Source of the DNA: Schmidtea nova | Taxonomy: Eukaryota | Length of the DNA: 64,000 bases | Reading direction: 5' to 3' | NCBI GenBank assembly: GCA_044892505.1 | Contig: CM097883.1 | Location: forward strand, 258,912,001 to 258,976,000 | Shown: piece after piece, positions 14,780 to 39,864 of the stretch | Numbering within the stretch: position 1 is the stretch's first letter | How the letters are laid out: every line of letters begins with the position of its first letter | Notes under the pieces: model-generated | What the model was told of the DNA's origin: nothing | The model's database searches: none | What the model saw: the letters and a program-made list of their open reading frames with translations, nothing else | Position numbers and translations under genes: made by a program

Positions 14780-14815
<36 letters not shown>

Positions 14816-15009
14816 GAATCTACGTAAAAATTACAAAAATTAAAGAGATATTAAAATTTTGATTATAAAAAGTGTCCGAAGTTGAGCGCAGTGGTACAGT
14901 GGTGTAGTGATTATGTAATGAGTTACCACGTGTTTAAGTGAGTACACGTGACACCACATAGCAACTAAAGGTCAAGGTGTAAAGGTCACCCGAGTCAAAG
15001 GTCTAATTT

Positions 15010-15275
15010 GATGCAATAGGGGTCAAAGACGAATGATGATATAATTGGGGTCAAAGTTCAAGAATGAGTTAATAAATATCAAATATAACATGATGAAGAC
15101 CAAATATGACATAATTTGGGTCAAATATGACGCGATTGGGGTCAAATATTATATGGTCGGGGTCAGATTTGGCGTAACTGGGGACAAATGTGATGTAATT
15201 GGAGTCAAATATGTCATATTCTGGGTAAAATATGACATAGCCGGGTTAAATGTTAAGTAACCGGGTTCAATATTA
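15010..15275 (+). repeat. Degenerate 21-bp minisatellite (about TGGGGTCAAATATGACGTAAT), about 12 copies
   Basis: Recurrent GGGGTCAAA at about 21-bp period; explains the repetitive ORF 15045-15260. Confidence 0.85.
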
Positions 15276-16942: not shown

Positions 16943-18350
16943 TTATATCTCCCCATTCATGATGGCCATGAATTCTTCCATGTTTACTACAATTGCAATA
17001 ATCAACAAAAATAATCATCAAAACGGATACTTGATCCATCTCCATCTTTATCGAATTCCTCAATCATCGCTCGTATTTCGTGATCAGTTAATGTTTCTCC
17101 CAACTCTCTGACGGAAATTATTTAACAATATTTCTCCTGACAACAAAAGTCACACAAACCTTGCAACTTTTTTCAAATTACGATAGCTAATTTTACCGGA
17201 TTCATCATCGTCGAACAATTTGAAAGCACGAATCATTTCGGTTGTTGGGTCTCGTTCGAGAATCATCTCAGAAACTAACAATTAATTTTACAACAAATCC
17301 ATCGTCATCAGTAAAAGCTTATATCGTTTTCACTATGGATCTCTTACAATTTCTATTTCTACTTCTATCCATATCTTTTTGGATCGTAGAGAAATATTTT
17401 GATTTTAATAAATATTTTTTTAGCAAGAATTTTTGAAACAGTCTTTTATCCAGTGTACGAAAGAAAGTAATGAAGATAAAGGGAAATTTAATTATTGCCA
17501 ATTTTAATAGTTTATATGCTTTACTGAACTCGAAGGACTATCTCGAGCACGTAATGAGAGAATGTAGATCAACATATTTTTCAGATCAATTTTCATGTAT
17601 TTTTCATTATTACAATTTCAAATTTTTTCGAAAGTTTTTTTATTGAAGAAATTGTTAAAGATAATTTATTGCTTTAATTAAACTGTTAACACAAGTATAA
17701 ATAAGATTTAATTGGCTAGCCAACAAAAATTTGGAATTCCCATAACTCTAAAGTAGTCGAAGTAATCAACATCTGGGATAATTTTTACGGCTTTAAAATA
17801 AGTTTTTCGCTTCGCAAATAATACTTCATTTCTTAAAACTAACAATTTCCTCTTCGTTATCTTCTTTCTTTATCACCAGTGCCGGATTTAGGCTTTTTAC
17901 ACTTGTATAAAAGCAAATAATTGCCATCATCTTTCAAACATATATGGAGGGAGAATGGCGCCATAGCTGAGTTGCCTCGGAACTCCAGTTNNNNNNNNNN
18001 NNNNNNNNNNNNNNNNNNNNNNNNNNNNNNNNNNNNNNNNNNNNNNNNNNNNNNNNNNNNNNNNNNNNNNNNNNNNNNNNNNNNNNNNNNNNNNNNNNNN
18101 NNNNNNNNNNNNNNNNNNNNNNNNNNNNNNNNNNNNTCATAATGATGACTATAGATCAAAATATTTTTATAAACAATAACACAATATTTCGGCACAACCT
18201 TTATCAAGTGTGTATATATACACACTTGATAAAGGCTGTGCCGAAATATTGTGTTATTGTTTATAAAAAAATTTTGATCTATAGTCATCATTATGGGAAT
18301 TATTGATAATAATAATAAAAGAAGATCAAAGGCGAAAAAAGATAATTATG

Positions 18351-18429
<79 letters not shown>

Positions 18430-21400
18430 CGCTGGTATGAGGGAAAGCCGAACACTACTCCTGCATATGGCACAGTATCTCAAGGGGCTCTGAAACAATG
18501 ATCAGTTTTTAATAAATTTTTCTAAAATTTTCGAATTTTGATTATTGAAATTGCGTTAAGTATTTTTTGAAAATGTAAGCAACATCTGCATCTTGCAAAA
18601 GATCTTTCAGTAAATTGTAATTAATAAAAAATCTATTTAAGATCAAAATTAGGGCAAGAAAATGTAAAAAATTTAAGCATTATCTCAATTGAAGCTGATT
18701 TAGCAAATAAAATTAATTTTGATGGGATAATTAATGAATTTGCTTCATTGAAAGCATGGAAAGTTAATGTCTTATAACTCTAGAGGTAGCTATTTATCCT
18801 TGTTGTTCTTTTCAATAGATATATTGTTACAAAATCATATATTTACTATTTCACTGCAAAAAACTGATTTCTTTCTTAATGTATACAATTTTCTTTGAAA
18901 AGGCGTAAATTTTGTAACTTGCTTAGGGCGCCAGTTTAGATTGTCCAACCTGTAAGATGTATTTATATAAACTATTCATATTTATATCATATATATTTTA
19001 TTATTTGAATGTTGTGGTATGTTGAAATTGAATGTTGGAATTGTTCGAAATATTATTTAAATTTAAATTAATTCTCCATAGATGAATTAAGAAAATACTT
19101 TGTTTAAATAATAAATAGTTTTTCACGTCTTTGAAATTTTAATGTATAAATCTAAAATGAATCCTAACATGGCGACCACGCCTATGCTGCAGTTTATTAG
19201 ACCGCCAGAAACATTCGAAATCGGTGATGACATAGAAAAATTTATCGAAGAAGCAGATAAATATTTTGAACTTAACCAAACAGCTGAAGAACACAGAGGA
19301 GTTTTTATTAAAGCATTTTTTTCGATGGAAGCAACGCGAAAGTTAGATGAAATGGATCCTGAAATTCATTACAAGAAAAGAATCCACAATGCCTTTATGA
19401 AGCCATCCAATTTAGTGATATTTCGAATTTAAGTGATATTTCGAACAATGTTTGCATGGATTTAAATGATTGTGAATGTATGTATGATTTGAATGTGAAT
19501 GAATGTAATTTGAATGTTGATATGTATTTTGATAATAGTTTGAATGAACTTAATAATTATAATATTTATGATTTAAATAATTTAAATGAAAATAAATTAA
19601 TATTTAAGCCATATCACCATAGTAAAGCTAAAAGTACTAATATTTGCAATCTAAAAGTGGAAAATCCTAAATAATTTATAATTAATTATAACCATATGGG
19701 AGGAAGACCTAGTGTTGAAATTGAAATAAACAAAGAAAAAGCAATATGTATGCTTGATACAGGGGCAAAGATTAGTATTTTAGAATACGAGATTTTTAAA
19801 AAAATTTGAAAACGTAATATTGGAAAAATGTCATATTGAAGTGAAATGTGCAAATGGCAGTGGAATAATTGTAATGGTAAGGATAAATATAACTGTAACT
19901 GTAGGGGGTATTTCAAAACCAATAGAATTTTATGTTACTCGAGGAGTTATTTCAAAAATAATTGGGGGTATAAATTTTTTAATGGAATTTAATATATATT
20001 AACAAAGAACCAATATTGAGAAATATCAGATAAGTTATATTTAAAAAAAGAAAGATGATTTCAAAAAAATGGAAAGAGAAGACAAAGAAATCGAGAAATT
20101 GATTGAAGAATATGAAACGGTATTTATGAAACATAAATGGGACATTGGTAAAACAGAAATAGTACGACATGAGATAAATACGACAGGGCCTCCAATTGTT
20201 ATTAATCCAAGACGTCAACCAGTACACCTATTATCGAAAGTAGAAGAAAATATTAAAGAGATGGAAAAGAATGGTATTATAAAGAAATGTGAATCACCGT
20301 GGAATTCGCCACTGGTGTGCATTAAAAAGAAAGACAAAGATGAGATAAGGATTTGCTTAGATTTTCGAGCATTAAATTTAGTAACAGAGCGACCTATTTT
20401 TCCTATACCAAATACAGAAGAAATGATGGACGCTTTTAATGGATCGAGATTTTTCACAACACTGGATTTAGGCAGTGCATATTACCAAGTGGAGTTAACT
20501 GAAGATTCAAAAAAGAAAACGGCATTTTTTACAAAGAATGAGCAATACTATTTCAATCGTATGTCATTTGGAATAGCAGCGGCTTCTGCTACTTTCCAGA
20601 AATTAATGAATAAAGTACTTGGATTACTAAATTGGAAAGAAGCTGTAGTGTATCTTGATGACATCCTAATATTTTGAAATACTAAAGAGGAACACATAAA
20701 AAGAGTAAAAAATGTTCTAGGCAGAATTAAAGTTGAGCCGAGAGAAATGTCATTTTTTGAAATTTGAAACTAAGTTTTTTTGGTCATATCATAAATAAAG
20801 ATGGTACAAGAACGGAGGATCGTAAAATTGACGCAATAAAAAAGTTAGAAAGACCAAAATGTTTAAAGAGGTTGAGGGTTTTTTTGGGACTTACGAATTA
20901 TTATCGAAGATTCATTGAAAATTATACAAAGTATTCTAAGAATTTGGAGAAACTATGTGGGGGTAATCAAAAAAAATTTATATGGACAGATGAATGTGAA
21001 ATAGCGTTTCAAGGAATGAAAGAACAATTAATGAGAGCTCTAATACTGGCTTTCCCTGATTTAAAAAAATAATTTATATTAGATACTGATGTAAGCTTTG
21101 ATAGAATAGGAACGGTGTTATCACAATTAGATTCTAATGGAAATGAAAGAGTGATTGCGTATGGATCACGTGCGATGAGTACACACAAATTAGTGTATTG
21201 CATCACTAGAAAAGAATAACTTGCAATTTATTATTTTACGTTAAATTTTAAACATTATTTATATGGGAAGCGATTTAGACTTCGAACGGATCACAAGGCA
21301 ATAACATTTATGCTTAAAACCAAAAAACCTATTACACCACAGTTTCAGACGTGGATTAACCATCTTAGTAGTATGGATATGGAATTAGAGTACAGGAAAG

Positions 21401-24204
21401 GCGAATTACATGTTAATGCTAATGTTTTATTACGGAACGAATGTGACACATGCATACAGTGTCAAACAATACACGAAGAACCAAAGAAAAGTAGTAGAAT
21501 CCTAGCGTTGATGCTAGGAGATGATGGTTCCATGTGGCAAAAGGATTCTATAGAGACTGCTGATATAAGAGAAAAAATACTGAAAGGAGAAGAGATCAAA
21601 TATGAAATTAACAATAATGTTATAACAACGAACAAAAGGAAAATATGGATACCAAAGGAAAAGATAAGAAAATTCGTAGAGCACACTCATCAAACGTTAT
21701 GCCGTGCAGGGGTGAAGAAAGTGCAAGATTATATTTCACAAACATTTGATTTTGAAAATAAACGTGAACAAATTGAAATTGTAATTCACAGTTGTAAAGA
21801 ATGCCAAAGAAGAAAAACATTGACAATACGACCGAAAGAAACTATTTTAAAACATAATAATTCGAATTTATTTGAGACGATTTTTATTGATTTTTGTGGA
21901 CCTTTAAAGACAACAATTCATGGAAAGAGATATATATTGGCAATTATGGATCAATTTCGTAGATATATATCATTAAATGCAGTATCAAGACAAGACGAGA
22001 ATACAACAACATCTACTTTGAAAAATAATTGGATTTTAAAATACGGAGCACCAAAGTTTATACACTGCGACAGAAAGAAAACATTCAAAGCAAAATTATT
22101 AAACAACTTAATGAACATTTCCCAAATTGAAATAGTATACTCAAGCGCTTATCATCATTCAGCTAATGGAATGATTGAAAGACAACTCAGAACCATAAGG
22201 GATGCAATTCAAATTTCCATAAAAGATAAAAATGTATAAAAATTGGGCAGATTTACTGCCAGAGGTGGAGTTTATGCTTAATTCGACGATTCAGAGTTCA
22301 ACAGGCTTTAGTCCTGAGCAAGAAGTATATGCCAAGAAAATATACAAAGAATGGTAATCAAGGGATAACAAGGATTCAGAAGTTAGAGAATACGTGAACA
22401 TTATGAATAAAAAAGAGAAACAATGACAGCACAATTGGAAAAGAATGAAAGAAAATTATAATATAACAATAAACTACGAACAAATCGAGAATTTAATGTT
22501 GCGAACTTTGTGTGGATAAAAGAGGATGTTATCTCAAAAAGAGGATAATAGATATGATGGTCCTGGTGAAATTATTGAGAAACGGCACAATCGTAGGAAT
22601 GTGGTAAAAATGCCAACTGGGAAAATAAAAATTAGAAATATAGAATGGCTAAAGGAATATAAAACTAAAAAAGATTATTGAAGGAGGGAGTGTAAGATGT
22701 ATTTATATAAACTATTCATATTTATTTTATTTATATTTTATTATTTGAATGTTGTGGTATGTTGAAATTTAATGTTGAAATTGTTCAAAATATTATTTGG
22801 ATTTAAATTATTTCTCCATATATGAATTAAGAAAATACTGTTTAAATAATAAATAGTTTTCACGTCTGAATTTTTAATGTATAAATCTAAAACGAATTCT
22901 AACAAAACCTATGTATATAATGAAAGAGAGAGAGAGAAAGAGAAAAGACAAAGACAAAGAGTATACATAGAGCACATTTCATTGAAGAACACAATTAGGT
23001 GTTTGTATTTATAGGCAACAAAAGGGTTATTTATCTCAATATAATTTTATTGGAGTAATAAGATAATCGAAGCATTTTGACTTTGGACAATTATGCCAAA
23101 AATAAGCGGATTTCATTGTATTACCTTAAAATGTTAATAAATTCATCATGTTAAAAAGCAGTAAAAAAGATTATATGCCACTCGTGTAGTAAAAATTATC
23201 ATATAAACACAGATATATAGCAAATATTGAAAAGTTTCTGAAATTTGATTGTCATGATAAAAACAATAAATTAAATTATTTCGAATTTTTAATCAAATTT
23301 GTCGGAACTGCCTTTTTCATGAGTTTATTTCAATAACATTATATTTTATTTAATCTTAAATATTTTTAAAATTTAAATACTATATAGAAGAAATCCATAT
23401 AATTTTCTACAATTGAAAGATATAAATTACAACGAACAAGTATGTAAGATAGTCTTATCTATTGATGAAACGAAATGTCAACTTTTTCAAGAAAAGTTTA
23501 AAAATACCTTAAAAAATTAGCCCCCGAAACCTTTTCAGCAAAAATCACAACACGTTCATCAACACTCAGCCGACATAAAATCACAGTTTTTTGTTAAATT
23601 ATCATCCAATTATATAAATTTTAAATTTCTTATCTAATATTAAATAAAATGATTGTAATAAATACTTGAAAAAAGCAGTACTGAAAATTTGTGTTGTTTA
23701 GGAAAACTTTTTGATTTATCGTCTTATAAAAGAAAATACCTGTAACTAATTGTTGGTACAATAATAAACTAAATAATGTTTTCTAAATTGCACAAAATGA
23801 AAATTAAGATTAGAAAATAAATTATAATTTTCAATTTAAGATACATTTTACTTGATAAAACACATTGTAAACTGTTTAATTTCCAATTAATAATCTTACC
23901 AATTTCATTAAAATCATCAAATTTAATTTTAGGTGATTCATCTTTAATATTATAATCATTCAGTATTTTAATTACATCTTGCTTTTTAACTTCGAAACCG
24001 AGAGCTCTTAACGAGACCTTAATAAATTTTTAATAAAAACGTAAAATGGATTTTATAAATATAAATTACTTTAAACTCGTACTGACTTAAAAGTCCATCT
24101 TTGTCTGAATCAAAAAGCTCAAAAGCTTCATTTATTTCATTTCTCTGATCGACAGTAAGTTTGCGTAAAGTTTTTTTCTTGGTTTTATTTATAGAATTTT
24201 CCAT
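16943..24204 (-). CDS. CETN3: Centrin-3 / Cdc31-type EF-hand protein, 162 aa; exons 24204-24070, 24017-23900, 17274-17160, 17107-17031, 16986-16943
   Basis: All four introns are GT-AG (52, 6625, 52, 44 nt) and the exons join in frame: MENS...[39 protein letters not shown]...[90 protein letters not shown] and [11 protein letters not shown] are centrin-3 hallmarks. Confidence 0.96.
17877..18950 (+). mobile_element. Non-autonomous hAT remnant (ZMYM1-like dimerisation domain) in centrin intron 2
   Basis: Starts with CAGTGCCGGATTTAGG, a hAT-type end. 18547-18776 reads, across a frameshift, [15 protein letters not shown]...[41 protein letters not shown]. Confidence 0.75.
18138..18295. repeat. 158-bp near-perfect palindrome; dispersed family with partial copies at about 5622-5800, 52040-52110 and 54632-54800
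   Basis: Left arm cataatgatgactatagatcaaaa...tttcggcacaacctttatcaagtgtgtata pairs with the right arm tatacacacttgataaaggctgtgccgaaa...ttttgatctatagtcatcattatg. Confidence 0.92.
18951..22904 (+). mobile_element. Ty3/Gypsy LTR retrotransposon, decayed, antisense within centrin intron 2
   Basis: LTRs 18951-19169 and 22691-22904 (TGTAAG...AACA); PBS TGGCGACCACG; PPT GAAGGAGGGAG; TSD caacc/aaacc (1 mismatch). Domain order PR (MLDTGA), RT (YLDD), RNaseH (TDVS, TDHKA), IN (IDFCGP, HCD); several stops. Confidence 0.95.
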
Positions 24205-25131
24205 AATTAAAGTGTGACTATTAAGTTATTGTTACTAGTAATGCACAATATAACAATTTAAAATTTAAGTGTACGCTATTGTAACTAACATCAAGTAAAT
24301 AATTTAAAACAAATAATGATTAAAGTCAAAAAATATTATATTTTGCTAATTATTTTACAAGTTAACAGATAGTTAATATAAATAATTATAAAATGTTCAA
24401 AAGATTGCCAATAGTGTTTACAAATTTTATATTCTATTGATTTTTTTGATTTACTTTCTTTTTTATAAAAATTAAATTTCTATTTCTATTTTTTGCTATT
24501 TCATTTAGTTTTAAAGCACCTATTTTACCATTTCAACTTCTTCCATTAATCGTTTGGCATTCACAGAGTCTCAAATTTTATGTTAAAAACTTCAAAATAA
24601 TTTTAAATTGAGAACTAAAAATACCGTTGTCACGAATATACTTAACAACTTTTGAGTTACCAGTGGTGGGTTGTTGACCGTCAATATGACCTTGACGTTG
24701 CTATGGCTCACATCAACAACTCAACATACAAAACATTAGAATAACCATCTGGTTGCCCGTCACAATGTAACAAATGAGTGGGCATTCGCAATCAGTCAGC
24801 GTCAATAACTCAACACCATGATTGACCGAATATCTCTTGGGTCCAAGGGCTACCGATAAAAGGTTTAATGCCCATTTTGTCCCTTCTTGCATAATTTAAT
24901 TTCAGATCTCAATTCAAAATTTGCAAAATTAAAAGCTTTGTCGATTCAAATTTACTAATCTGTTTCAGTTGATTTCTTTCACGAAAATGATTTTCTGTTT
25001 TTATCAATCTTATTCATATCACACATTATACATTCAAACAAATAAGTATTTTAAACACATGAGAAAACTTGTAATAATATCATATCACCACATAAACTAC
25101 AAGAAAAATGTTATCAATTCAAATCATTGAA

Positions 25132-25687
25132 TCACAATAGTGTTATGTCAATGAATTCAGATGATTTCTTACGCAATTGTCCCAGCAATCGCGCTTCTCG
25201 ACGATGTTTTCGTCGAGCCCTCATTCCTTTGATGGGCTTCCAGCGCTTGGGTTTTTCAGGAACCGACGGCTTCTGGATCTCTTCTTCGACTCTGACGGGA
25301 AACAATTCCTGAGATGGTTGCTGTATTCTTGGCAGTACGGCTGCGATGATGCCGCTTTCTACCCTTAACTTATCGATCAGGAGCTCCTGCTCCCGCATGA
25401 TCATTCTACAGGCGCGAAGTCTCAAGGCATCTTCCGCGGCCTGCTGCAATAACACATGGTTCTGCTTTTTCAACTTGTTGACCGTCTCTTTGTTGGACCA
25501 GGTCGATTCCATCTCCCGGCATCGAGCCCGAAACCTCTCCATGCGCGAGGTCATTATCTGCAATGCCTCCGCATTCGATGACTTCAGCATCTCCAGCTCG
25601 GCGAAACACTGATCTACCTTGCGATTGTGTTTAGTGTTTTCGACGGTCATCCGCCAAATTTCCTCTAATTTTGTTCTGAGTTCATTG
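25132..25687 (-). CDS. Orphan ORF-X (at least 172 aa; predicted helical N-terminus, Arg/Lys-rich C-terminus); probable terminal exon
   Basis: GC-richer open frame; extends in frame to a TTATTTTCAG acceptor at 25688 (NELRTKLEEIWR-MTVEN...); homologous decayed copies at 37671-38227 and 10866-11282. Confidence 0.55.
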
Positions 25688-25859
25688 CTGAAAATAAGTA
25701 TAACACCTTCAAAACGTATTTAGACAACTAATTAACATTAGAACGTATCGACAAAAAGTTATTTCAACATAGAATTTATTATTAGACTCAAGCAATGGTA
25801 GTGTCTCCATTGTCACTCTCAATTCGGAAAAACATCACGAAAAAGACCTGGGAAACAAT

Positions 25860-28800
25860 CCATTCACTTGCTATCTTTTCCTATTTAGCTATTGAAATTT
25901 TTTTTAAACTCCCTATATTTTCGTGTGTAAAAATTTAGTTGAAAAACTCGCTTGAATATTAATCCTAATGTCTATCTTGCCACATATTTTAAGATTTTAC
26001 AAAAATTTATTATTTTGATTTTTTAAAAATCTGCTGAGGCATTAGCGACGGTTAACGACGTAAGTTTTCCCGATATGACTAATTTTACCATTAAAAATTT
26101 ATCTAACATTTAAAATTTTATACTTTTTGAAATTTCAAACAAAATTTTATATTAGGAAAAACGATCCCCATCGTCCCCCATCCGAAACATCGGCGTTCTC
26201 CCTATAAGAAGGAATATTATATAAAGGGGAAACAAAATTTCATGAGTTCTGATTGGCTAATCCATAATATGTAAATTTAATTTCCATAATAAAATTATTG
26301 ATTTGAAATTATTTTTAGATCTCTGGAATTCCTTTTCTACTGGATGCTCGTAAGTAAATTGATTTTATGTTGTTACTGTATATCTAATGATTTTAGCCAA
26401 AGGTCAAATTCAGACTCCTGGATAAAAACTCTGAGTGGAACTGATGCAAACGAGAATCTGATTTTTTCTATCTGCTATAATAGAGGTAATTTTCTTGTTA
26501 CCAACAAAACACAGTAAATATGTAATTTTCTCCAGATTTTAAATTCGTTCTTTTATGAATTGTCAGTCAGCTTGACTTCCACTTCGAGGGTTCAACATTC
26601 TCTCTGGATAGTTTGAGGATGGAAGGTTTACTATCGCATTTTCCATACAGCTTACATTCACTCTCGTTGGATCATTCACTTCGTCAGTGTCTGGATGTCA
26701 CTATAATCTCAACTAATGGAATTTATCCTATTTGTGATGTGGCATTTTCCTAGCCAGTTTTCGTCGAAACTGTTGTAAGTGAATGTGGTTGAAACGTTTT
26801 ATTTTTTGTAAATATAATTTTCTGTTAATTGGATTTTACTAAGTCAATAACTTTTTAATATAATAATTTTTGACTGGAGTTTTAATTAAAATTAATACAA
26901 ATAAGGAGTGATGTTTTTAGGAATTGTAGTATGGCGAATTAATGATCGAAGTCCAAAATATGTTACCGAATAGCAGTAGAAGAATCTTGACGTCAGAATT
27001 CTACGCATGAACAGCTAAGCAACAATTTTAATAAAAAAAATTCGAGTTGCAATCAATTCTTGATACAAAATTTTGATCTTCTAAATAGGCAGCTAGGAAG
27101 TTGGGGTATTACTTTGGTGAGTGAATTAAGGGCATAAAGTTGAAAATACTATCTGAATGTATTTCATTGCTATAGGGTATGTTTAGCGAGTGAGGTGGGC
27201 TAATCTGTAGAGATATGTGGGGGATCTAACTCTCATAGGTGGTGCAATTGATGAAAATGCAGATTGTTGGTTACAATTGATCGAGTGGGGTTTATGAATC
27301 GGCGTGCTGTATTCTATAATGAGACTCTATATGGGATGTTGTAATTTGCTGTGGTTTTGTGAGATGGAATGGAGGAATTGCAAGTTTGTGCTTGCGTAAT
27401 ATTATAGATTTGAGATGAATGTCCTTTTTCTATGATTTATGTGATTGTATGTTGGATAGATTGTTAAATGCAATTGGTAATTCGATGTGAATGTTTGTGC
27501 AAAATCTGTATGTGTGATGCAAACAGGTACTAACGAATGGAATAAAGTGATGTATGTTGGTGAATGGATGTGTTGTCTATTGTAGAGCCTAGTATAGGAG
27601 ATGTTATTTATCGAAATATTAGAGTGTGTGTGTATTGGGAATTGAATGAACTTCTAAATGGCATTGTATATGGATGATGTTATTGAATGGTATGGATGTA
27701 TTGTTTTGCAAATATGGATGTAGTATATCTTTTGTGATATCGTGAGGGTTAGTTTATAAATTAATATATACATAAACATAAATAAACTTTACAATAAAAT
27801 AATAATTCTAGTATCCATAAATCTTCTTAGTTAAATTTTTAAAATTTGAATTTTATAAAGTTACAATAAAATTTTCGATTTATACTTTTTATATTTTAAT
27901 ATAATCATAATAAATAAAATTTTAATTTTACAAGCTAATACAAGGATTCGATTTATAATTTTTACTTTTTCAGGAGAATCTTGATAAAGAAAAATTTTGT
28001 ATTTTAAATTTTCCATGATAGAATACCTATAAAAGTAAATTTCGGTTTTATAATTAAAATTTATAATTTCCATGAAGTTTACACGATAAATGAAATTTCA
28101 ATTCATAAATTTTCCTAAATAAATTAAAATAAATGAATAACGTAAAATTTATCCACCGTTATACAAATGTTTTTATAATAAAATTCTTGATTGGTAATTT
28201 TTCACAGGGATTTGAATCTGCTGATCTAAAGTAATTTTCACAATGATATTGAGATTTCAGCTTTTGAATCTTCGTTCGGTTATCATTCAAAATCAACTCT
28301 CTAATGCATAATAGTTTTCGACATCAAGTGAGGTGAATTTTAGTTTCGTTCGAGCGTGAATTTCCCGAGCAAAGTGGCCGCAAATTTTTCGAGACACTTC
28401 ACTCGAGAACTTCAGTCTCCCGAAACTAAGGTTCACTGGAGTAAATTATTTAGATAACTATGCATTTAATGAGGTTTAATTCAAATAAATCAATACTTGC
28501 TCTCATATTTCATTTCGTTGTTAATGTTTTTATCGGTTTTGAGCATTATTTTGAACGATTTTTATAATATTGACTTTTATTCGACTTGTAGATTCTGATA
28601 AGATGATAATTATTGTGAGGGTGAAGGCGAATAACGAGTTGGAACTTTTTATTAAAATAGATTCTGTTAGATCAAAGACGATTGTTGGATGGAGTAACGA
28701 CATGTTTTATCGAGTTATCATTTTTGCCTTTCATTTTTATCTTATATAATATAATTCAGATATACTAAAATAATATAGTTAAAATCATCAGTATACACTC

Positions 28801-31800
28801 TTGCCCTTGGCCAAGCCACTGTTCCCCAGTTGGGATGATGTGAGCATGGATGTTTCAGCGTCACCTTGAGGCAGAAAAATGAGCTGGTCGATTACGAATC
28901 GAACAGCGATCCGCCCAGGCTACTTCCATCCGTACAGCACAAGGCCGGACGGATTTCAGATTGTATGGGAGCAAAAGAGATATTATTATTTAATAGATAT
29001 GATATATACAATAAATAAAATTGACATTCATGATGGGAATCTGTGACAGTAATTATAAAAATTTAAATCATAATGTAGAAATAATAAACGAAAATTCCAT
29101 ATAAGATTTGATATTTTTAAACAAAGTATCTTTATTAACAAGAAGTAATATTACACCTAAACTTCCTATATAAAAATTTGCACATAATTACATTAAGCAA
29201 AAACCTCATCAGGCATGGGATGTCCAAAGGGCATGACTTTTTGGGCCTCCCATACCGACAAAAGTATATAACGTTAATAAAATAAGATAAAAAGTGAATA
29301 AAAATAAAAATACCCTCACGTTAAAATGCGGCTTTCCTAATAGGCTTTTCTAAAGTTTTCTTGAATTATCCGATAAATTCTTGTAACTGAAGTTTTCACC
29401 AGTGTTATTGCGGTTTTCTTAATAAATTTGCCGAATCAGTTTAATGCGGCTCTCCTACTCGGTTTTCTAAAGTTTTCTCGAATTCTCCGATAAATTCTTG
29501 TACAGATAACTTCTCGGGGAAAAATAAATCAAATTAAAGATGGGTTTCGCCGAAATTTCTCTACAAAAATTTCTTCCGCAACCGAAAATTCAAAATTTTT
29601 AAACAATATTTTTGCACAAATTCTGCATTCTGCCATTTTGATGGCGGTATATATACCTCCTTCTGTGAATTATCTTCATTGATGTATTAAAACAAATTGT
29701 TCTAGAAGGAGTTTCTATTTTTTTCAAAATTAATTCCAACAATTTTTCGCAAAATTAAATTGATAATTTTACATCAAAATTTCATAAAACTTTAAATAAT
29801 TTATTTTCAATCCAAAATTTTACTTTTGAATTAAAGTTTATTCTAATTTGATTTAATTTGCTATATTTTCGATCAAAATTGTTTTCTTTTATATTTTTAC
29901 GAATTCTTTAGATAAAATCGCAATTTTCCTTCTAAAAACATGCTAAATGTCCACAACTGAGGTTTTATAACATGGATGCGTTCTCCACGTGCATATTCGA
30001 TGTGTTCTTTGCCTATTTTAGCTTTTTAGACATGTTTTTTTAACGACTTTTGGTTTTACTAGATGTTTTGATTAAAAGACGTTAGATTAGAATTTCGCAC
30101 GCTCTCTACTTGTGGTGTTACCGCTTTATTTAAACAATTTGCAGTTTTGACCCAACATTGCTTTAAATATAAAAAGATTTTTATTAAAAATCTAATCATT
30201 TTAATTTTTGAAAGTTTGCCAAGGCCTTAGCAATAGCAACAATATAAATTCTCTAAATAATTTAACCTTATCGATATTTCCCAAATTTGCGGATTTTATG
30301 TTTATTTCCAAATTTTAGGTCAAATTTCAAACTAGGAAATCCGATATTGATCGCATTTCCATCAAAATCATCAGCGTTCCCCCGAAATAAAAGAAATCTA
30401 TATAAATGGGGAAGTAAAAATCATTATTCCTAATTGTCCATTTACATTATGATTTTGTGTAGTTCTGGTTTTAGAATTCGGATTCTCAGATGACAGAAAT
30501 CTGGATATGCTAACCAGTAATTTGATTTGATTTTCTATATAGGAATTATTTAAAGCTAATTTGATTTTAGAGAGATTGTACAACCCACCGTGGATTTGGA
30601 GAGTTGGTGGAAACGTCCAGTTTTCCACTTTCATCGCTCTCAAAATACAATCTCAGAATTAACTTAATGACAGCAAACCAATTTTGTATTCAAATTTTCT
30701 ATCCCCTATCCCTACTCTTCTGGATTGTGGATTATGTAACTTGAGCACTCTCTCGCTCGATTCGCCAAAGAAAACAGTCAATCCACTGCAATAACCAACT
30801 CCAAGGCTTATTGTAGCCCCTCTTGTCTATGCAGGGTCGGAATTGTTATTTTTCGGAATTATTTTTCTCTCAATCCTCATTATGCCTGACTACCTAGTAA
30901 AGACTTATTTGTTACTTAACTAAAAGTTGGGTAAAAGTATATTGTTACTCTTTTATGAATTTTAAAAAAAATTTGTAAATTTTCTTTTCGTTTTCCCTTT
31001 TCTATATTTTGCTCGTCGGATTATGCAAACGCTTCCTAGCTATCATGTTTTTATGTGATCGAACTTAAATCACCTTACGAATGTTGGGATAGCCATTATT
31101 AGTGTGGATTTAGAAGATGTTAGTCACTAAATAAGTTTTCTCGTTTTAAGAATAGAATAATCAAATTATAGATCGAATAATCACTCCTCTGAATAGAGTA
31201 CTATAGAATAAATGTCTTATGTTATGAATGGCTTGTGGACGGCATAAGATAGCTGGACTTCCACAGAGACTATCTGGATGTTGTATGCCGTATGTGATGT
31301 ATTGAGGAATGAGATGGAGGGGTGAATTTTCATCTGTGATGTAAGGTGTAAATTACACTAAATTACAGTAATAATGGCNNNNNNNNNNNNNNNNNNNNNN
31401 NNNNNNNNNNNNNNNNNNNNNNNNNNNNNNNNNNNNNNNNNNNNNNNNNNNNNNNNNNNNNNNNNNNNNNNNNNNNNNNNNNNNNNNNNNNNNNNNNNNN
31501 NNNNNNNNNNNNNNNNNNNNNNNNNTATTATGAGTTTTCGTTGTGATAATTGTATGTGAATGCAGGTGATTGTATGTGATTGTATGTGATTGTATGTGAT
31601 TGTATGTAGGATATGATATTAATGCAATAGGCAATTCAAATAATGGATATGATTGTGTGAGTGCTTATGGTATTCCTGGATGTATGAATCAAATAGGTAC
31701 TATTGAGTGAAACAATATAGTGTGTGTGTTGGTAAATGAATGTGCTAATGAATGGTATTGATGTAATATATTGCAAACATGTATGTAAAATTATTTTCGT

Positions 31801-33942
31801 GATATCGTGAGGGGTATTTATAAAATAATATATATTTATATATAAAATAATTCTACAATGAAATAATATTTTTAATATTTATAGTACTTATAATTTTTCC
31901 TATTTAAATTTTTAAATTGCGAATTTTATAAAATAACAATAAAATTTTCGATTTATAATTTTTATATTCTAATAAAATAATAAAAAATTTTAATTTTGTA
32001 TTTTGTATTCTAATATAAGTTTTGATTTATAATTTTTACATTCTAGGAAAATTTAAATTTTATATTAAAATTTTTACATAATATATTATCTATAAAAGTA
32101 AATTTTATTTTTATAACCAAATCTGAAAATTTTATAAGATTTATACCATAATAAAATTTTTATTCACAAATTTCACAATCTAAATAATTCAATCAAAAAA
32201 AAATTTGCATATATTATATTATCTTTGAATGTAAATTATAATTTTTACGAAAATTAATCCCGATCATATATGAGTTTCTAAAAATAAGGTATAAAAATTC
32301 AAGCCGGTTCTTTTGGCGATCTCTAATTTTCAAAATTCTATATGCAGTTCTTAGAAGTTTTTATCAATGATGTTCACGATTTAGAGTAAAAATTCAACGA
32401 ACTATTATCGAGCATAATCTGTAAGCATAGTTCAATATAACTTTTTAATTGATCTTCGAGTTGTCATTTATGATCTTTTATACGTTTGACTCTCCGATCG
32501 ACTGTGCGAATTCTTTCATAGTGAAGTAAAGATGACGTTTATTAAGCGAAAGCGATTGGCGAGACGAATGAATATTTCCGATTCATTTTAATATGTTCGC
32601 ATTTTTATGTAGTTGTGAGAGCTATGTGATTTAATATAAATAAAAATAACTACAATATTATAAATAAAATATTCATTTGCGTCTTTGAATACCATTTCGC
32701 ATTTCAAAAAAATGTAATAGAATTCTAGACGTTAATTATTTTGAACAGACCTTGCACTTGGCCAATCCACTACTTCTCATATAGCCAGGTATGAGATGAA
32801 GCGTTTTTGGATGTTTGCGCTCACTTCGATGAAAATATGGATCAGAACACTGAAATGACTAGAGCAAACTGATGATTCACCAAAGCGACTAATGACGTTA
32901 CAACGACTAGGTGGACCATCATCAGACGTAAGGAAAGGGTTTTAATTAAAAAATAAATATATAAATATGCATATAAATAAATAAATGACTATCAATATAC
33001 GTATGTTAGGTTATGAGAAAATATGACCAAAGTAAAAATAAAACTTGAATAGAAAAAATTATAATAATCATTACATATTTTACCATAAGATAACACATTA
33101 TCAAACTTGAATAAAATTGAAAATCAAATCAGAATACTTACGGCAGGTTAACAGGGCATGATTTGCTAGCCTGCATAACATAAAATTCATGATTCTTACA
33201 TAATAGAATAGCTTCTCTGCTTGGTTCGGATACGAGTTCTAGAAATCTGTCGAGGGGTTCGAATTCCGAGAATTCTCACACGATTTTAAGCAAAGTTATT
33301 TCTTAAAATTTTACTGCTAAAAACGTTTCAAAATTTTTAGCAACAAAATTCCGGAAAATTCTGAGCAACTTCTCGTGAAATCCATTTTGATGGCGCTATA
33401 TATAGTTGCTCAGATTGTTATTTTCGTTAGTTTATTAAAACAAATTGTTCTAGGAATTTTTCGATTCTTGAAAATTAATTTTAATAATTTTACGCAAAAT
33501 TGAATTATTAATTTTGCATAAAATTCTAAAAAAACTCTAAATAATTTATTTTTGATCTAAGATTTCATTTTTAAATCAAAGCTTTTCCTAATTTAATTAA
33601 TTTATCATAATGTCTAACTAAAACAATTTTCTTTCATATTTTTTGAATTTCTACACTAAAATTTGAAAATTTCCTCCCGAAAAGTTGTTAATTTTTCCTA
33701 GTGTGCTATTCCATTACACGATTTATGTTCTCACGTTATACATGTGTTTTTCACATATACACTCAATGCGCTTTGGTTCGTTTTAATTTTTCAACGTGTT
33801 TTGATAGATTATTTCATTTTTTTCTGCTGTTACTGGGTCGTATTTGGTGTTTTAGGCCACATAATTTTAAATCTACTTCTTGCGCGCTTTCTACATGTTG
33901 CATTACCACGCCATTTAAACAAACCTCAGTTTTTGCCCAACA
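25860..33942 (+). repeat. Two head-to-tail copies of a decayed unit of about 3.75-3.8 kb
   Basis: Ordered homologous blocks at 26030/30215, 26190/30370, 26410/30475, 27730/31795, 28800/32755, 29225/33150, 29632/33382 and 30100/33885. Confidence 0.8.
26319..26760 (+). pseudogene. Decayed multi-exon gene segment (exons 26319-26349, 26397-26485, 26536-)
   Basis: 47-nt GTAAGT...TTTTAG and 50-nt GTAATT...CTCCAG introns give an open frame LWNSFSTGCSQRSNSDSWIKTLSGTDANENLIFSICYNRDFKFVLL, then one TGA and about 65 more open codons; paralogous sequence at about 30460-30660. Confidence 0.45.
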
Positions 33943-34243
33943 CCAGAAGTGAAATTTCTAATTTGTTTTAAGGCGTCGAAAATACACTCGCACCGCCAAA
34001 GGTTAATTCAAAATCCACGAAAACACTAAATAATACAAATTAAACACAACACAAAATGATCAATAAATACGGATAATTTAAGTAATGGAAAGCAAGAGTA
34101 CAAGTAACGATAGAAAAGTGTTGGGCAAAAACTAAATCCTATTGATTTGAAAGCGAGTGAGGACATAACATGTAGCGACTGTGAGAAAGTATACACATGT
34201 TAGGTGGTATGGGTATTGTTATAAAACTATTAACAATTTCTAG

Positions 34244-37200
34244 GGGTTAATACAACCCACATCACAACGTAAATATCAATCCATCACACACGTGTACCAA
34301 TAGTTATTCCACAAGTAACTATGTTGTTACTGTACACGGTTGCGAGAATCTAGTGAGCAGGTGAGCTTCATTGTCCAAACTACTCCTCACTAAATTCTCT
34401 CTTTCGGGTTGTTGCTGCTGATAGAAGGACTTATGTATCTGCTTTCTTTTCGGTCCTATCGCATGATTTCCCTCCTAACGATCTATTACTTTCCGCTATC
34501 AACAATATACCTTTATTCATTTTCAATTAATTTACCAACACGATGAATGCTCCTGACCATCACATTTTCTCTCGCCCAAACTTAGTTCAAGTACGCCGCA
34601 TCGCCTAACTCTCCGAAGAGAGTCAGGACGAGAGGCCGTTGCTTGCTCATCAGGTCGCGAGACCATCAGGACGTGCCCTTATATATTTTTCTCTTGAGGT
34701 TCTGAGGGTCTACCCACGAACAATCATAAATTTTTATGATTCAAAACATTTATTGAATATCATTCACATAACATGATTAAATCCGATGTTCTTTACAGAT
34801 TGCCATACACAAAACAAACCTACTCACCTAGGCTACTGGCTGTCGAAAATGAAATTCTGCAAACTTTTGCTTACTATCTATTTATTTTTATTGTGATTTT
34901 TCGCGTTTATTTATACTAAATAGACTGACACCCACGCATTTCCCATTCAAATAATTATATTATGATTTAAACTCAATTTATTTGTTTCAATAAACTATTA
35001 TTTATTTAATTTTTTGTAAATTTAATTTTATTATTTAATTTATTTATTTCTAAAATATTTGTTTTTAATTCCGATAAATGATGTGTGTGTGTCCATTGTT
35101 TTTGTACATTTATTGATTGATTAAAACAATCAACTTTAATTTAATTCTATTTTTATTCCTACCTCTGTTATTTTTCCGATATATGAATGGGGATTTAAAT
35201 TTGTAAATTTTAATAAATTATTTTCTTTATTCTGATATCAATTTTATTCTTTGATCATGCTTTTCGTTATTTTGTACAGCGATGATCTTCCCCATTCAAT
35301 TCTCGTGCGGTCCTTCGTGTGTAAATGCGACCTGCACTCAAATCGTGGGCTCTCTTTTGAGATGCCTCTTTTCTATCGTTTAAGCCCTATCTCGACCGAT
35401 TTATAGAATGCTTACTTATCGTATGTTTACTTTTGTACTTTACTGTTTTATTTTCATTTGCGTTAGTTTACTGCGTAATGCTTTATTGTGCGTTTTTAAA
35501 CTTGTTCCTTTTTAATTTTTGATGAATTCAAACAAAATTTTATTTTCGACTTCCCCAGCCAAACACTCAAATAACTGAAAAAAACACTGCTAACGTGTTT
35601 ATGTACCGATCTCAGGTTATTATCTTATTTAATTTACACTAGACGTTCATGACATTCTAATCCCTTGCACATGTACCCTCAATTATTCCTATACAATTGT
35701 GTTAGTAATGGTGTATTCATGATAGTTCTTGATGACCTTGACTGTTACCATGGCTCATCATCAACAACTCAACACATAAAACATTTATAACCATCTTGTC
35801 GCCCGCTACAATGTAATGTTGGTAATGCAAAAAATGGGTAGACATTCGCAAACAGTGAAGGTCGAAAAATTCGAAACTTTGATTGACCGAATGTCGCGGT
35901 GGGTTCAAGGTGCCCGTTTTAGTTCCAAACTGAACTCTCTATCTTCGGTTTGTAATATGTAACCAAAAAGTAAGATTTGATATTTGTCCCATATTCCTAA
36001 CTGTACACTTGCTACGGTAAACTTACATTATGTTATTATAAATAGCGATAGCTACCATTATTATAATCCTTGAAATCAAATAAGATTCATGCTGGGAAGT
36101 ATGAGTGTTGTTTAAAATGTATTATTGACTCTAGGGATGCATACAAACCCTCACCGCAACATAAATGTTATCTACCTCATCCGTGATCCCATAGTTACTC
36201 CTCGATAAGCTATGTTGGTAATGTATATGATGGGGAGAATCCAGTGAGCAGGTGAGCTTTGTTGTCGAAATTACTCCTTACGGTATCCTCTCTTTCGGGT
36301 TCTTGCTGCCGATAGAAAGTCTTACGCATCTAGTTACTCTCTATTTCTAAAGGTCCTTTAAATTTATCAATTCTCGATCTACTATATCCTCACACTATCT
36401 TATTCACAAATCCACACATTTTTATCCCAAAAATATATTATCAACACTCCTAAATTGTATTTTTGTCTTTTTTTTACCCCGCCATCCTATATGGTTTAAC
36501 GATAAAATGGTCCGGAGGAACCGATTTTTCGGCCCAAACAGTTCCTAACCATCGGAGATTCGTGACTGATGAGCCATCAAAGACTCTATTTGAATCAGTT
36601 TAATCGGGGCAAATCAATTTGAACAAGGCAAAACAAAACAAATTTATCGTTAAAATAAAATATTTATTATTAATTACAATTTACTAAAATGCAGTCACAA
36701 ATAATTACGTAATAATTACGTAATAATTACGTAAAACATTTAAAAGAATACATAAAATAAGAACTTACTTGTTACTGATGTACCACACAATTGAATAGAA
36801 AAATTACTGACCGGTGCTGACTGGCAGAATTGAAAATCGTGAATTAACGTGTTACTGTGTTCAAAATGTACTCAAGCGTGTCAAAAATTATTCAGGCGTT
36901 TGAAAAATTATAATTTTTCAGCGTCTATTTATACTATTTTTGGGTGACTCCTACCCATTGTTCATTAAAACAATAATGTTTAAAATTTAATTCATATATT
37001 TATTTTTATATTAACGTTTTTATTTTTCTAAATGATTTATTTATTTTTTTCCTTAAATTTAATTTTATAATTAATTTTATTTGTTTCTAAATATTTAATA
37101 TTAATTCTATTAAAATAATGTGTGTATCCGTATTTTAAGAGCGTTATTGATTGATTAAAAAATCAGATTTAATTTCAATTCTATTTTCATTCCTATCTCC

Positions 37201-37577
37201 GTTATTTTTACGATTTTTTAATGGGGATATTTTCTATAATTTTTAATAAATTATTATCTTTATTTTGATAATAGTTTTATTCTTTGATCAATCTTTTTAT
37301 TATCAATAATTTCACCAATTAAATTCTCGTGCGGCCTTTCGCGTGTAAATTTGACCTGTACTCAAATTGTGTGCTTTCCTTTGAAATGCATCTTTGTCAT
37401 CGTTTCTCCTTTATTCGACCGACTTATGAAAAGCGTTTCGTATGACTACTATTTATGCTTTAATATCCTACATCTTTCCATGCTATTTTCCTGTTTAGTT
37501 TTCTTACGTGTTACCGTGTGATATTAATTTTATTTGACGTATTAAAAAAACCGAACCTCAATTCCGCCAGTCCAACA
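34244..37577 (+). repeat. Two head-to-tail copies of a decayed unit of about 1.9-2.0 kb
   Basis: Homologous blocks at 34244/36135 (117-nt AG...GT exon-like block), 34570/36530 and 35060-35565/37100-37577; a third copy of the last block lies at 15470-15797. Confidence 0.8.
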
Positions 37578-37670
37578 TTCAAATCACACTTAAAATTTTA
37601 ATTAGAGCTAGGAATTACAATATTCTTCCACAGTGGAAACATCCATTAACATAAATCTAGACATATTCAG

Positions 37671-38227
37671 TCAGATCTTCTCGAGAATGGAAATGTCAAT
37701 GGACTTCGTTGAGGTTTTTCTAATCTGCCCAACACTTGAGCTTCTTGCCGTCTCCTCCAGTGAGCTCTTAACTCCTTGCTCGGCTTGAACAGTTTGAGCC
37801 GGGTGGTATCTCAGTCGAGGGGTTTTTTCCCTCTTTCCGAACTGGAAACAATTCTAGGGAGAGATTACAGAGTTTTGGGAGCACGGTGTCTGTTAGTCCT
37901 GATTCTACTCGTGTTCGTGCCAATTCAGTGTCCCTCTCCTGAATTGCCATCTTCAATGCCCTGTGCTGGGCGGCGTCCTCGACAGCTTGTTGTTGGAGTA
38001 GTTTGATTTGTTGAACTTTTCAGTACTATCAACGCTCGTCCATGTCGTTTCGGTGGTCTGACATCGGGAGCAAAATTTATTTATCCGCTTGACGAGAGAC
38101 TTATTTTAGACACAGAGGAGCTTCTTTTCCTCCTCCATGCTTAATAGGCGCAGATTTATTTTTGTCGGACGCTTTGTTCTATCTCTTTGACTGACTTGAT
38201 CAATTCCTCAATTTGAGAGTGTGACAT
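37671..38227 (-). pseudogene. Decayed copy of orphan ORF-X
   Basis: KLLQQQAVEDAAQHRALKMAIQE..RVESG...VLP....SLELFPVR and the frameshifted GQIRKTSTKSIDISIL match LLQQAAEDALRLRACRMIMRE..RVESG...VLP....SQELFPVR and GQLRKKSSEFIDITLL. Confidence 0.75.
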
Positions 38228-39098
38228 GTACAATTTAAAAAGGACAAATAAAATCGATGCGCTACATACGCTGACATCAGCTAAAAGCATTTCCTTCATC
38301 CTTCATTCAGACGATCCATCAATCAATATAAGTTTCATGCAACAACACAGAAATATATTTTGCAAATAGACCTCAAACGTTCAACCCATTTGAGCATCGT
38401 TCCGCAAACAGTCTTTCCCACGATCCAATTCAGAAATGATTTCATTTGGCATTAGTTCATGTTTAAAATTTTTACTCAGTTTATTAAAAGAAAGTCAGTT
38501 TCTGTTTGTATTTTCATGTCCAGATTCGATTCAAATGGATCCTTAAGATCCTTAAGATTTTTGGAGTTAAAAGCATTACAATTTATTGAGAACCTAAACT
38601 TATAATATATGGTGTCATTTGAGATTTTGTCTTTCCAAAATTTTATTTTATCTTCATTAAAATTGTCAATCTTACATTTACCTATAGAAAATTCTATTTA
38701 GGTTCCCTTAAAGTTTTATTATCAAATCCAAAAATTAAGATAACATTTAGAATTTAAAATTTCCACTTTAAAATTTTAATGCGATTAACTTGCTGTTAAG
38801 AAATCTTTCTTCAAGGGTGTTTTTGCTATTCATCTTTTATCTAAAACCTGGTAAATTAAAAGTAAAACAATAAAATTTCAGGGTTTAAACAATTTACTGC
38901 TAATACGCTGAATTAGAAACGGTTACTCAGTAACCTATGGCCTAAATTTTCGGGTTGGATATATGAATTTACTTTTCCTTCTCTCCGATACGTTCTGATT
39001 GGTCCGTTTATAAGATTCTGATGGTTTGATTTATTAATTTATAACATATAAAATGAATAATAATACAAAAAATTGAACATAAAAGTTTTGGTTTACAG

Positions 39099-39182
39099 AG
39101 TGTAGATTTTAACAGGCACATGGCTGTGGTAGATACTAAGTTCAGGAGAATACAGGAATTCTTTAATAGTTCGACTCCACAG
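39099..39182 (+). CDS. Candidate internal exon (84 nt, phase 0-0) of an unknown gene
   Basis: GTTTACAG acceptor, open frame SVDFNRHMAVVDTKFRRIQEFFNSSTPQ, CAG|GTGAGT donor. Confidence 0.4.
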
Positions 39183-39864
39183 GTGAGTTAACGAAGTTTA
39201 TCTTTTATGTATTTGAAATACAAGATTTTAGTGTATGAAATTAGTGAAAAAATGAACATTTGTCTAATAAATAATTTTACATGTTTTAAGTTTTATTTGC
39301 CAATTCACGGATTTAATAGATTACGATTCTAGTCACATGAGTAAGTAGTTAATGGCTCCCTAACGCAGTGCTTATCTGGGCCAACACCCCCCCTAGAAAA
39401 AAGTGAGTCAATGAAAAAAAAATCCTCGATCTTTTGTATAGGATTTTTGGACTGGGATATTTAGCAAAGATGGGTCTGGTATTTTTTAACAGTGAATTTT
39501 GGTCATAAAAGTTGATTTATTACTTAGAATAAATAATTGAATTAATTTTAGTGGATAATTAGTTTTTTAAAAAAGGTTACAAATAACCATGTTTCTAAAA
39601 TTAAACCTTTATTAAATAAAGTTGTTAACATTTAGAATATATTTAAAATACAAATGACTTTTAATCTAAGCTCTATTGAAATCATGGTCCCTCTAATTCT
39701 TCACTTGTTAACCAACATTATTTTAAAAATCATTATAAAATCTTAATAACTAGTTAAACACAATAAAATGATAAAAACTAATAAATTTTTATTGATTTCT
39801 AATTAAATTACTTCTTGATACTTTTTAAATGTTCAAATTGATTCTTCACACCGTTAATTTAAAG

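Follow-up and report, generated by a model that had tools for sequence, protein, structure and literature searches.

The array of recurring blocks described here lies within a 64,000-nt window of the Schmidtea nova genome (the whole stretch of DNA analysed) and is best read, with a probability of about 0.72, as a nest of old, diverged long terminal repeats (LTRs) that derive from three or more families of retrotransposons of the Ty3/Gypsy type, the tie to Ty3/Gypsy being drawn from termini and target-site duplications (TSDs) only, since none of the G-M, L, K-B and D LTRs has a full-length parent element in the window. Each full element would have used its own integrase to insert, often into an older element, and would later have lost gag-pol through recombination between its LTRs, leaving a solo LTR. 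G and D would represent U3 5′ ends, M and K-B the TATA-R-U5 ends, and the spacers that cannot be aligned the rapidly evolving U3 interiors of different subfamilies, such that the recurrence and order of the blocks would reflect LTR anatomy plus nesting instead of one repeating 7-kb unit. No mobility gene is expected in such a nest, because solo LTRs have lost gag-pol, and the earlier statement that none is recognisable holds: the best Pfam E-value was 0.046 in six frames of seven array segments with stops read through (42 frames, about 10 of 14.7 kb, leaving out the AT-rich E, K and B, most of M, and 24.6-26.3 kb except the X open reading frame, which was scanned separately), and no Rep, helicase or reverse transcriptase (RT) was found in these frames. 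The puzzle of a mosaic array without a mobility gene is thereby mostly removed, since nested solo LTRs at 25-40% divergence would look like this, and the array, apart from the orphan gene X, would be ordinary genome clutter.

Most of the blocks that the sequence-only reading had distinguished by letter can be aligned between copies (each pair compared by local alignment with 100 locally shuffled controls; n = 51 pairs), with 56-80% identity overall among significant repeats. Homology was found between copies of E (78% identity, z 70), K (73%, z 68), D (D1-D2, 79%, z 41), H (H1-H2, 65%, z 40) and X (X1-X2 as DNA, 56%, z 27), between those of G (69-74%, z 19-76) and M (69-80%, z 34-49), among three copies each of B (61-68%, z 19-31) and C (64-67%, z 11-24), and in the second half of J, its alignable part (75%, z 30); G and D resemble each other at z 1.6-8.7 across pairs. 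It was not detected for I1-I2 (z -0.1), F1-F2 (z 2.5) or a supposed further H at 38.6-39.1 kb (H′; z 1.5 and 0.0), so the claim of recurrence stands for most blocks but not for these three, nor was it confirmed for the C-K and G-M spacers, on which anchored global tests agree with local alignment. A diagonal scan, in which two shuffled queries returned 0 and 1 hits scoring ≥28, gave collinear offsets that drift from 4185 to 3745 for H..B and span 1891-2037 for G..M. The expected collinear periodicity is thus partly present, but its 2-kb component consists of two independent insertions of the G-GM-M family, each splitting older sequence, and the repeats, although real, do not form the basic unit of about 7 kb that had been proposed. 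Outside the array, G is found at 14.4 kb and 55.06-55.17 kb and M is confirmed at 15.4-15.8 kb; of a C-K-B series reported at 54.2-55.2 kb, C and B are present (54.2-55.0 kb) but K, sought at 54.6 kb, is not confirmed (z -0.6).

The first of the two insertions, G1-GM1-M1 (34198-35565, plus strand, 1368 bp), runs from TGTTAG to CAAACA between CACA/CTCA flanks, carries TATTTATA at 34908 and AATAAA at 35212, and lies inside an inverted B end (B′). The second, G2-GM2-M2 (36090-37577, plus strand, 1488 bp), runs from TGCTGG to CCAACA between TTCA/TTCA duplications, carries TATTTATA at 36926 and AATAAA at 37245, and lies inside the D2-X2 spacer. The sequences split by both units occur uninterrupted elsewhere in the window. 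The left part of B′ (34119-34197, minus strand) begins exactly at the terminal motif, and B′ resumes past G1-GM1-M1 (35566-35699, minus strand; 2 of 500 shuffles in a global comparison with 58381-58520), while an inverted B copy without the insertion (58309-58500, minus strand) contains the empty site at 58381-58384. Here the left flank matches 58326-58381 (0/500 shuffles), the right flank continues where the offset predicts, with 11 of 14 positions identical, a level reached by 0.02% of positions, and both flanks jointly rank first of 127,944 positions at 14 nt. Removal of G2-GM2-M2 leaves a D-to-X distance of 291, compared with 297 in D1-X1, and its right flank including TTCA matches 25013-25028, a position chosen after that alignment had been seen; its empty site was not top-ranked in the ungapped two-flank test. 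Unanchored local tests of the right flanks were not significant for either unit, and global flank tests, which included short D and X stretches, gave 3 and 1 of 500 shuffles. The empty site in paralogous sequence is clear for G1-GM1-M1 and weaker for G2-GM2-M2. The G-M repeats, previously taken for internal duplications of the 7-kb unit, are separate insertions with their own TSDs, and the order B-G-M-D-B-G-M has to be amended in that the B in front of the first G is inverted (z 7.3) and the second G has no B ahead of it. A third copy, G3...M3 (14419-15797, plus strand), has its interior replaced by simple and tandem repeats, a decayed start (TG terminus) and a CCAACA end, and no TSD was found at its ends; G4, a fragment of the G family starting with TGTTGG at 55040 (plus strand), cuts an F-C-B copy at 55039.

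A related pair, both solo LTRs of a second family (L), behaves in the same way, as discrete insertions of 0.8-1.35 kb: L1 (13151-13963, plus strand, TGTTGG...CCAACA, TSD GAAG/GAAG) and L2 (39865-41210, plus strand, TGTTAG...TCAACA, TSD AAAG/AAAG). For the L1 start and for the L2 end there were two candidates each, and the choice was made knowing the TSD. L2 also contains a 134-codon antisense frame (39989-40393). In the G-M and L units, the TG...CA termini coincide with homology boundaries. Over the 60 nt inside each proposed terminus, homology between copies is significant in 8/8 pairs (0/300 shuffles each), and outside it is absent in 7/8 pairs and marginal in one (10/300 shuffles). Three of five start-end pairs have perfect 4-bp TSDs, one agrees in 3/4 positions and one has none; two random 4-mers would agree with a probability of 0.008, and a relaxed scan returned 152 TSD-matching motif pairs across the whole window, so that the TSD alone proves little. 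By motif position, TATA, AATAAA and a T-rich tail follow one another on the plus strand in G1-M1, G2-M2, L1 and L2. The combination of TG...CA ends, this motif order and a 4-bp duplication is, on sequence criteria, solo-LTR anatomy. A near-complete Ty3/Gypsy element that served as a control (46093-50095, plus strand; identical 132-bp LTRs ending in TAACA; TSD CAAT/CAAT) makes a 4-bp duplication, as the G-GM-M units do, and its LTR has no homology to the tested part of the array (33380-37577). An integrase-only element is also present, at about 41.7-45.2 kb.

The same TG...CA units might be ascribed to non-autonomous DNA transposons of integrase-related, Ginger-like superfamilies, whose terminal inverted repeats (TIRs) would be B and B′, given that Ginger1 and Ginger2 are described with TGTNR ends and 4-bp TSDs (PMC2836005), that B and B′ are mutually inverted and that the window contains the integrase-only element. 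We regard this as improbable: Ginger TIRs are given as 40-270 bp (PMC2836005), whereas the terminal inverted match of the G-M and L units is just 4-7/8 and 12-14/30, as in a gypsy element at 18951-22904 (6/8 and 14/30). Moreover, the targets are neither CCGG/CCGT nor RTATAY, B and B′ point outward across 176 bp, and six comparisons found no clear inverted B left of D1, the best (1/300) involving 30 nt of AT-rich sequence at a distance of 340 bp from D1.

In addition to these delimited units, K-B and D are probably both LTR parts, judging by their ends: the right end of K-B is sharp at CCAACA in three copies and the left end of D is sharp at TG in two (TGTTAG). D1 (24655-24860, plus strand), the left end of a D-X unit and a distant paralogue of G, has a decayed TG start and is a probable LTR 5′ (U3) end by sequence; the D1-D2 homology stops at its aligned start. 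D2 with the first part of the D-X spacer (35700-36089, plus strand) starts with TGTTAG, and D3 (about 10340-10560) forms with X3 the third and most diverged D-X unit (10340-11290). The first long unit, H1-I1-J1-E1-F1-C1-K1-B1 (25984-30157, plus strand), has a TATA in K at 29648 and a CCAACA end at 30157 that may be the R-U5 end of a long LTR; the second, H2-I2-J2-E2-F2-C2-K2-B2 (30158-33942, plus strand), has a TATA at 33397 and a CCAACA end at 33942, and contains an assembly gap (31379-31525). A third F-C-B copy, without K (54206-55170, plus strand), is the one cut by G4. K lacks a conserved AATAAA and has just ATTAAA, and no opposite end with a clean TSD was found for D-X (3′) or for H..B (5′). 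An inverted K-B possibly resumes at 39620 (4/500 against K1 but 453/500 against K2). Two other delimitations failed: a 9.3-kb unit with CCAG flanks (24664-33942) was rejected because the D1-D2 homology extends 9 bp further left, and an insertion of D1..B1 into an older H-containing copy found no support.

H2 abuts B1 directly, without a TG motif, and nesting alone does not explain this junction. The gapless junction, the order H-J-E-C-K-B kept over about 4 kb, and the TATA and CCAACA end of K-B would suit a mixed account in which G-M and L are solo LTRs but the two H..B units are an old local tandem duplication or a tandem LARD/TRIM-like element, with H..C as the interior and K-B as an LTR common to both neighbours. 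That account is unlikely, though the least so of the alternatives, as there is no B-like sequence upstream of H1 (z 0.2), no PPT anywhere in the array, no TG start that both copies have in common between C and K, and no TGG primer site after B1 or B2, which PBS-like hits do not follow; the two copies, moreover, resemble the 54-kb copy at least as much as they resemble one another. The earlier suggestion of non-autonomous LTR derivatives named the right class, but its architecture of LTRs common to neighbours is unsupported, the insertions being separate.

Divergence among the copies is star-like, adjacent copies being no closer to each other than to copies about 20 kb away: C1 and C2 are 58% identical compared with 65-66% to the C copy 21-25 kb away, and B1 and B2 60% compared with 64-69% to the distant B copy. 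This argues against local tandem amplification and against the earlier proposal of a concatemer of an integrated circular element, which we consider very improbable in any of its forms (Helitron, Penelope-like/Terminon or integrated viral circle). The head-to-tail order of the blocks would fit a concatemer, as would a hairpin plus CTRR at 24663 (minus strand) and a pair of hairpins that share a 7-nt loop, one in each C-K spacer (29197-29271 and, from the alignment, near 33140-33185). However, the window contains nine CTRR hairpins of this kind and the one at 24663 is not conserved in D2, TSDs are present, and the array frames, as noted, hold no Rep, helicase or RT. Helitrons are defined by a 3′ hairpin plus CTRR conserved across copies and by the lack of a TSD, and this candidate was rejected on both counts. 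The Penelope-like/Terminon candidate was likewise rejected, there being no hammerhead in terminal repeats, where decayed ribozymes could be missed, and no telomeric junctions; the array has a single hammerhead-core pattern hit (30374, within H2, with none at H1), no telomeric repeats and no poly(A) beyond one A9. Searches for tRNAs, for Rfam families at gathering level and for an RNA structure common to G and D on either strand gave no match.

The interest that is left lies in X, an orphan gene that shows selection at the codon level and is located within an LTR-type 5′ end, 480 bp from the TG start of D. X1 (25132-25719, minus strand) is an open 195-codon stop-to-stop frame with a predicted helical hairpin and basic C-terminal helix, and is likely, from its sequence, a 3′ exon from about 25688 preceded by an intron of ~49 nt. 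X2 (37683-38300, minus strand) is broken by several frameshifts and stops, its best piece being 41% identical to X1, and X3 (10866-11290, minus strand) is a broken copy that is undetectable as DNA (z 0.5) but detectable as protein (score 81 versus a best of 60 in 12 shuffles), so that the X reported at 10.9-11.3 kb is retained at the protein level. Codon periodicity is clear in X alone (p 0.0005; among 20 array block pairs the only one with p<0.01, E giving 0.047), 79 of its 162 mismatches are at third positions of minus-strand codons in a frame assigned by hand, and frequent 1-bp indels mark the other block pairs. By this codon-level signal X, which is present in three copies, shows coding selection, and it runs opposite to the LTR orientation inferred here. 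Intron-like GT-AG stretches of 45-50 nt can be read from the sequence in I and adjoining X. Three copies of a selected coding sequence and such stretches are what a cluster of small spliced host genes, lineage-specific and in decay, would contain, yet that origin, also raised earlier, is very doubtful, as clear periodicity is confined to X and gene duplicates are not expected to show sharp TG/CA boundaries with TSDs.

No homologue of X was found among 208 candidates of near length (word search) or 3227 of longer length (two-row alignment), and X has no Pfam match above cut-off. PHROGs gave one weak match (E 0.007) among 13 proteins searched, the ESM Atlas gave generic coiled coils with low recognition, and a HMMER search with an X-containing profile, weak because the profile collapsed to 69 columns, gave no homologue. 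Fold searches gave no BFVD match at E≤0.001 and returned generic helical hairpins (best Z 12.6, many ties). From its modelled long helical hairpin and Arg/Lys-rich helix, X would most likely be a nuclear dimerising regulator, and it may have served as an accessory antisense gene of the D family, under purifying selection while that family was active. We tentatively suggest that D-X-H-I-J-E-F-C-K-B (24655-30157, 5.5 kb; flanks TTTG/TTGC, start decayed) could make up one giant LTR from an animal Ty3/Gypsy lineage not yet described, with spliced antisense X in its U3; equally tentatively, that U3 might hold further promoter-like blocks, and the G-M units might be shorter sister LTRs with the same 5′ end. 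If so, every solo LTR would keep the accessory gene after gag-pol loss, as a dispersed, self-contained expression cassette for X. Orphan genes could then spread and become domesticated in this way, and X would allow antisense regulators to be studied beyond plants and retroviruses.

Compared with known systems, the array shares TGTNR ends and a 4-bp TSD with Ginger1 and Ginger2, which in the account of PMC2836005 need long TIRs and specific targets, both absent here. Bdelloid LTR retrotransposons, also from invertebrates, are described as carrying extra ORFs of orphan or coiled-coil type and as being rich in solo LTRs (PMC5408684); those ORFs are internal ORF3s after pol, and the likeness to X is by description only. 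Retand, Grande and RIRE2 have, like the array, a conserved ORF that runs against the element orientation and may be regulatory, reported in plants between pol and the 3′ LTR and mostly as TRP28 (PMC11963269), whereas X has no Pfam match above cut-off and appears inside U3. Ogre (LTRs of 1.9-6.5 kb) and planarian Burro, as described in PMC6431247, show that multi-kb LTRs and accessory ORFs of unknown function occur and that decayed copies persist in AT-rich animal genomes, but the array has no Burro or Ogre protein domain and their accessory ORFs are placed in the internal region, unlike X near its TG start. The closest likeness is to Ty3/Gypsy solo LTRs, although the array LTRs match no intact element in the window and K-B and D are half delimited: Gypsy termini are given as TGTNR (PMC2836005), the formation and nesting of solo LTRs have been described (PMC7251063), and, as far as these sources describe them, both start with TGTNR and end with CA, have a short terminal inverted match and a 4-bp TSD, show the TATA-polyA order, are inserted into older elements and lack gag-pol.

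The collinear repeats that the sequence-only reading described as a mosaic of lettered blocks at 24680-39200 are recovered both by BLAST and by a composition-weighted diagonal scan, and, as that reading had stated, no mobility domain is found in the array; RNA family and tRNA searches also found none. At 56-80% identity, pairwise tests confirm that D, X, H, the second half of J, E, C, K, B, G and M recur; for I, F, H', the K placed at 54.6 kb and the spacers they give no such confirmation. The B copy proposed to precede G is present but inverted, and the X copy at 10.9 kb (X3, 10866-11290, minus strand) is real at the protein level only. G and D are weak paralogues, and copies adjoining one another are no more similar than copies far apart, as is to be expected of independent members of dispersed families. 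The feature is real yet largely ordinary, most likely a nest of old solo long terminal repeats (LTRs). The array units would derive from Ty3/Gypsy-type families, as solo LTRs or as fragments of LTRs; solo LTRs arise by unequal recombination between LTRs, and insertions are commonly nested (PMC7251063).

Conservation within the blocks ends at termini of retrotransposon type. TGTTRG opens G1, G4 (a fragment from 55040), D2 (in 35700-36089) and both members of a second repeat family, L1 and L2, with TGCTGG at the start of G2; CCAACA closes M2, M3, B1, B2 and L1, with one mismatch in M1 and L2. A TGTNR rule has been described for Gypsy termini (PMC2836005). Within the 60 nt inside the terminus, all eight copy pairs are homologous (0/300 shuffles), and outside it seven of the eight are unrelated and one is marginal. 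Duplications of 4 bp flank G2-M2 (36090-37577, TTCA/TTCA), L2 (39865-41210, AAAG/AAAG) and L1 (13151-13963, GAAG/GAAG); G1-M1 (34198-35565) lies between CACA and CTCA, and the flanks of G3-M3 (14419-15797) contain no 4-bp duplication. The near-complete gypsy element at 46093-50095 is flanked by CAAT/CAAT and its LTRs end in TAACA, while a second, at 18951-22904, ends in CTAACA with flanks matching at 4/5 positions over 5 bp; the terminal inverted similarity of the G-M and L units is no longer than in this latter element. Because a relaxed scan yields 152 pairs, target-site duplications alone are weak evidence, and empty sites were therefore tested.

G1-M1 interrupts an inverted B copy (34119-35699), its left flank matching 58326-58381 in another inverted B and its right flank picking up at the predicted base (11/14, a level reached at 0.02% of positions). 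With both flanks combined, the site comes first among 127,944 positions at 14 nt and seventeenth at 20 nt; an unanchored local test of the right flank was not significant. G2-M2 interrupts a D-X unit, and its removal leaves D and X 291 bp apart, versus 297 in D1-X1. The right flank of G2-M2, TTCA included, matches 25013-25028, a weaker case since this position was picked after the fact and did not stand out in an ungapped two-flank test. The two empty-site results therefore reduce the proposed 2-kb period of G-M to two separate insertions by a single family, each into a different host. These are discrete insertions with TG...CA ends and target-site duplications, and they are nested.

Internal anatomy is LTR-like. 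On the plus strand, G-M carries TATTTATA at 34908 and 36926 and AATAAA at 35212, 37245 and 15615, followed by a T-rich tail; the L family has TATA and then AATAAA in the same order. In K-B, TATA (29648, 33397) precedes the end by 510-545 bp, and no AATAAA is common to the copies. L1 and L2 share conserved blocks separated by poorly alignable spacers, the pattern seen in the array. L1 (region 12800-14200) splits a decayed Lys/Glu-rich plus-strand frame with a Pfam match on neither side. In the J blocks (27050-27760, 31150-31830) G strongly outnumbers C (skew 0.54 and 0.50), and 10-bp repeats lie beside an assembly gap. F1 includes a short, MITE-like palindromic stretch (28305-28466), which may account for part of the F1-F2 mismatch. 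Both C-K spacers, otherwise unalignable, hold a hairpin at an equivalent place (29197-29271; about 33140-33185) with differing stems and the same loop core, possibly a cis-element.

The window (eukaryotic DNA, 29% G+C, six N gaps) is crowded with remnants of transposons. These are two Ty3/Gypsy elements, one transposase of ISXO2/Merlin type, one of DDE_1 (pogo) type and an element with an integrase only. The last, at 41726-45160, encodes rve and H2C2, begins TGTTA immediately after a (TA)n run, has inverted similarity between 41741-41809 and 45088-45156, and resembles Ginger2/Tdd. An apparently intact centrin gene (16946-24204, minus strand) has introns of roughly 50 nt and one of 6.6 kb, within which sits the 18951-22904 element, its LTRs 92% identical; the left edge of the LTR nest lies ~450 bp upstream of the centrin start codon. 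Base composition and intron size would suit an AT-rich invertebrate such as a triclad flatworm. A small repeat borders the array on its right (39315-39539) and, 82-87% identical and in opposite orientation, the 54-kb copy on its left (53750-54100). A fragment at 1729-2151, with a short inverted duplicate at 52490-52566 and no Pfam match, resembles a 5'-nucleotidase by its motif.

Among 20 array block pairs tested, with one control, for three-base periodicity of mismatches, only X1-X2 (25132-25719 and 37683-38300, minus strand) is clearly periodic (p 0.0005); the E pair gives p 0.047, and the others are flat and contain numerous 1-bp indels. The excess lies at codon position three of the minus-strand frame, assigned by hand, in each of the four long X segments (79/162 mismatches). 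X1 is open over 195 codons, and X2 and X3 are broken. X is under selection. Its predicted structure, from a two-row alignment (mean pLDDT 75, pTM 0.49), shows a pair of long helices together with a disordered linker and a basic helix, and fold matches are generic hairpins only. Several searches detected no homologue, the exhaustive one among them being weakened by its 69-column profile. We infer that the D family carries X as an accessory gene in antisense orientation. Just upstream of X3 is an orphan 86-codon frame (11631-11891, minus strand), for which no paralogous sequence in the window scores higher than shuffled controls.

The remaining interest lies in this orphan antisense gene and the chance that it is located within one giant 5.5-kb LTR. 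D1 to B1 spans 5503 bp, with flanks TTTG/TTGC and a decayed start. Such a single LTR is a doubtful possibility, and unproven, because neither a right end of D-X nor a left start of the H-to-B units (25984-30157, 30158-33942) was found and no H is detectable after X2 or X3; H2 directly follows B1, and the start motif is absent. L2 holds an antisense 134-codon frame (39989-40393, minus strand), mostly in a stretch missing from L1 and matching nothing in Pfam or PHROGs, possibly a second example of an LTR that contains an ORF. Among titles and abstract openings retrieved by searches on ORFs within LTRs, none obviously describes such an ORF for an invertebrate element. Some retroviruses have ORFs overlapping U3. 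The size would not be unprecedented, since Ogre LTRs are given as up to 6.5 kb, and Burro elements as >30 kb, their internal regions reaching 25 kb (PMC6431247).
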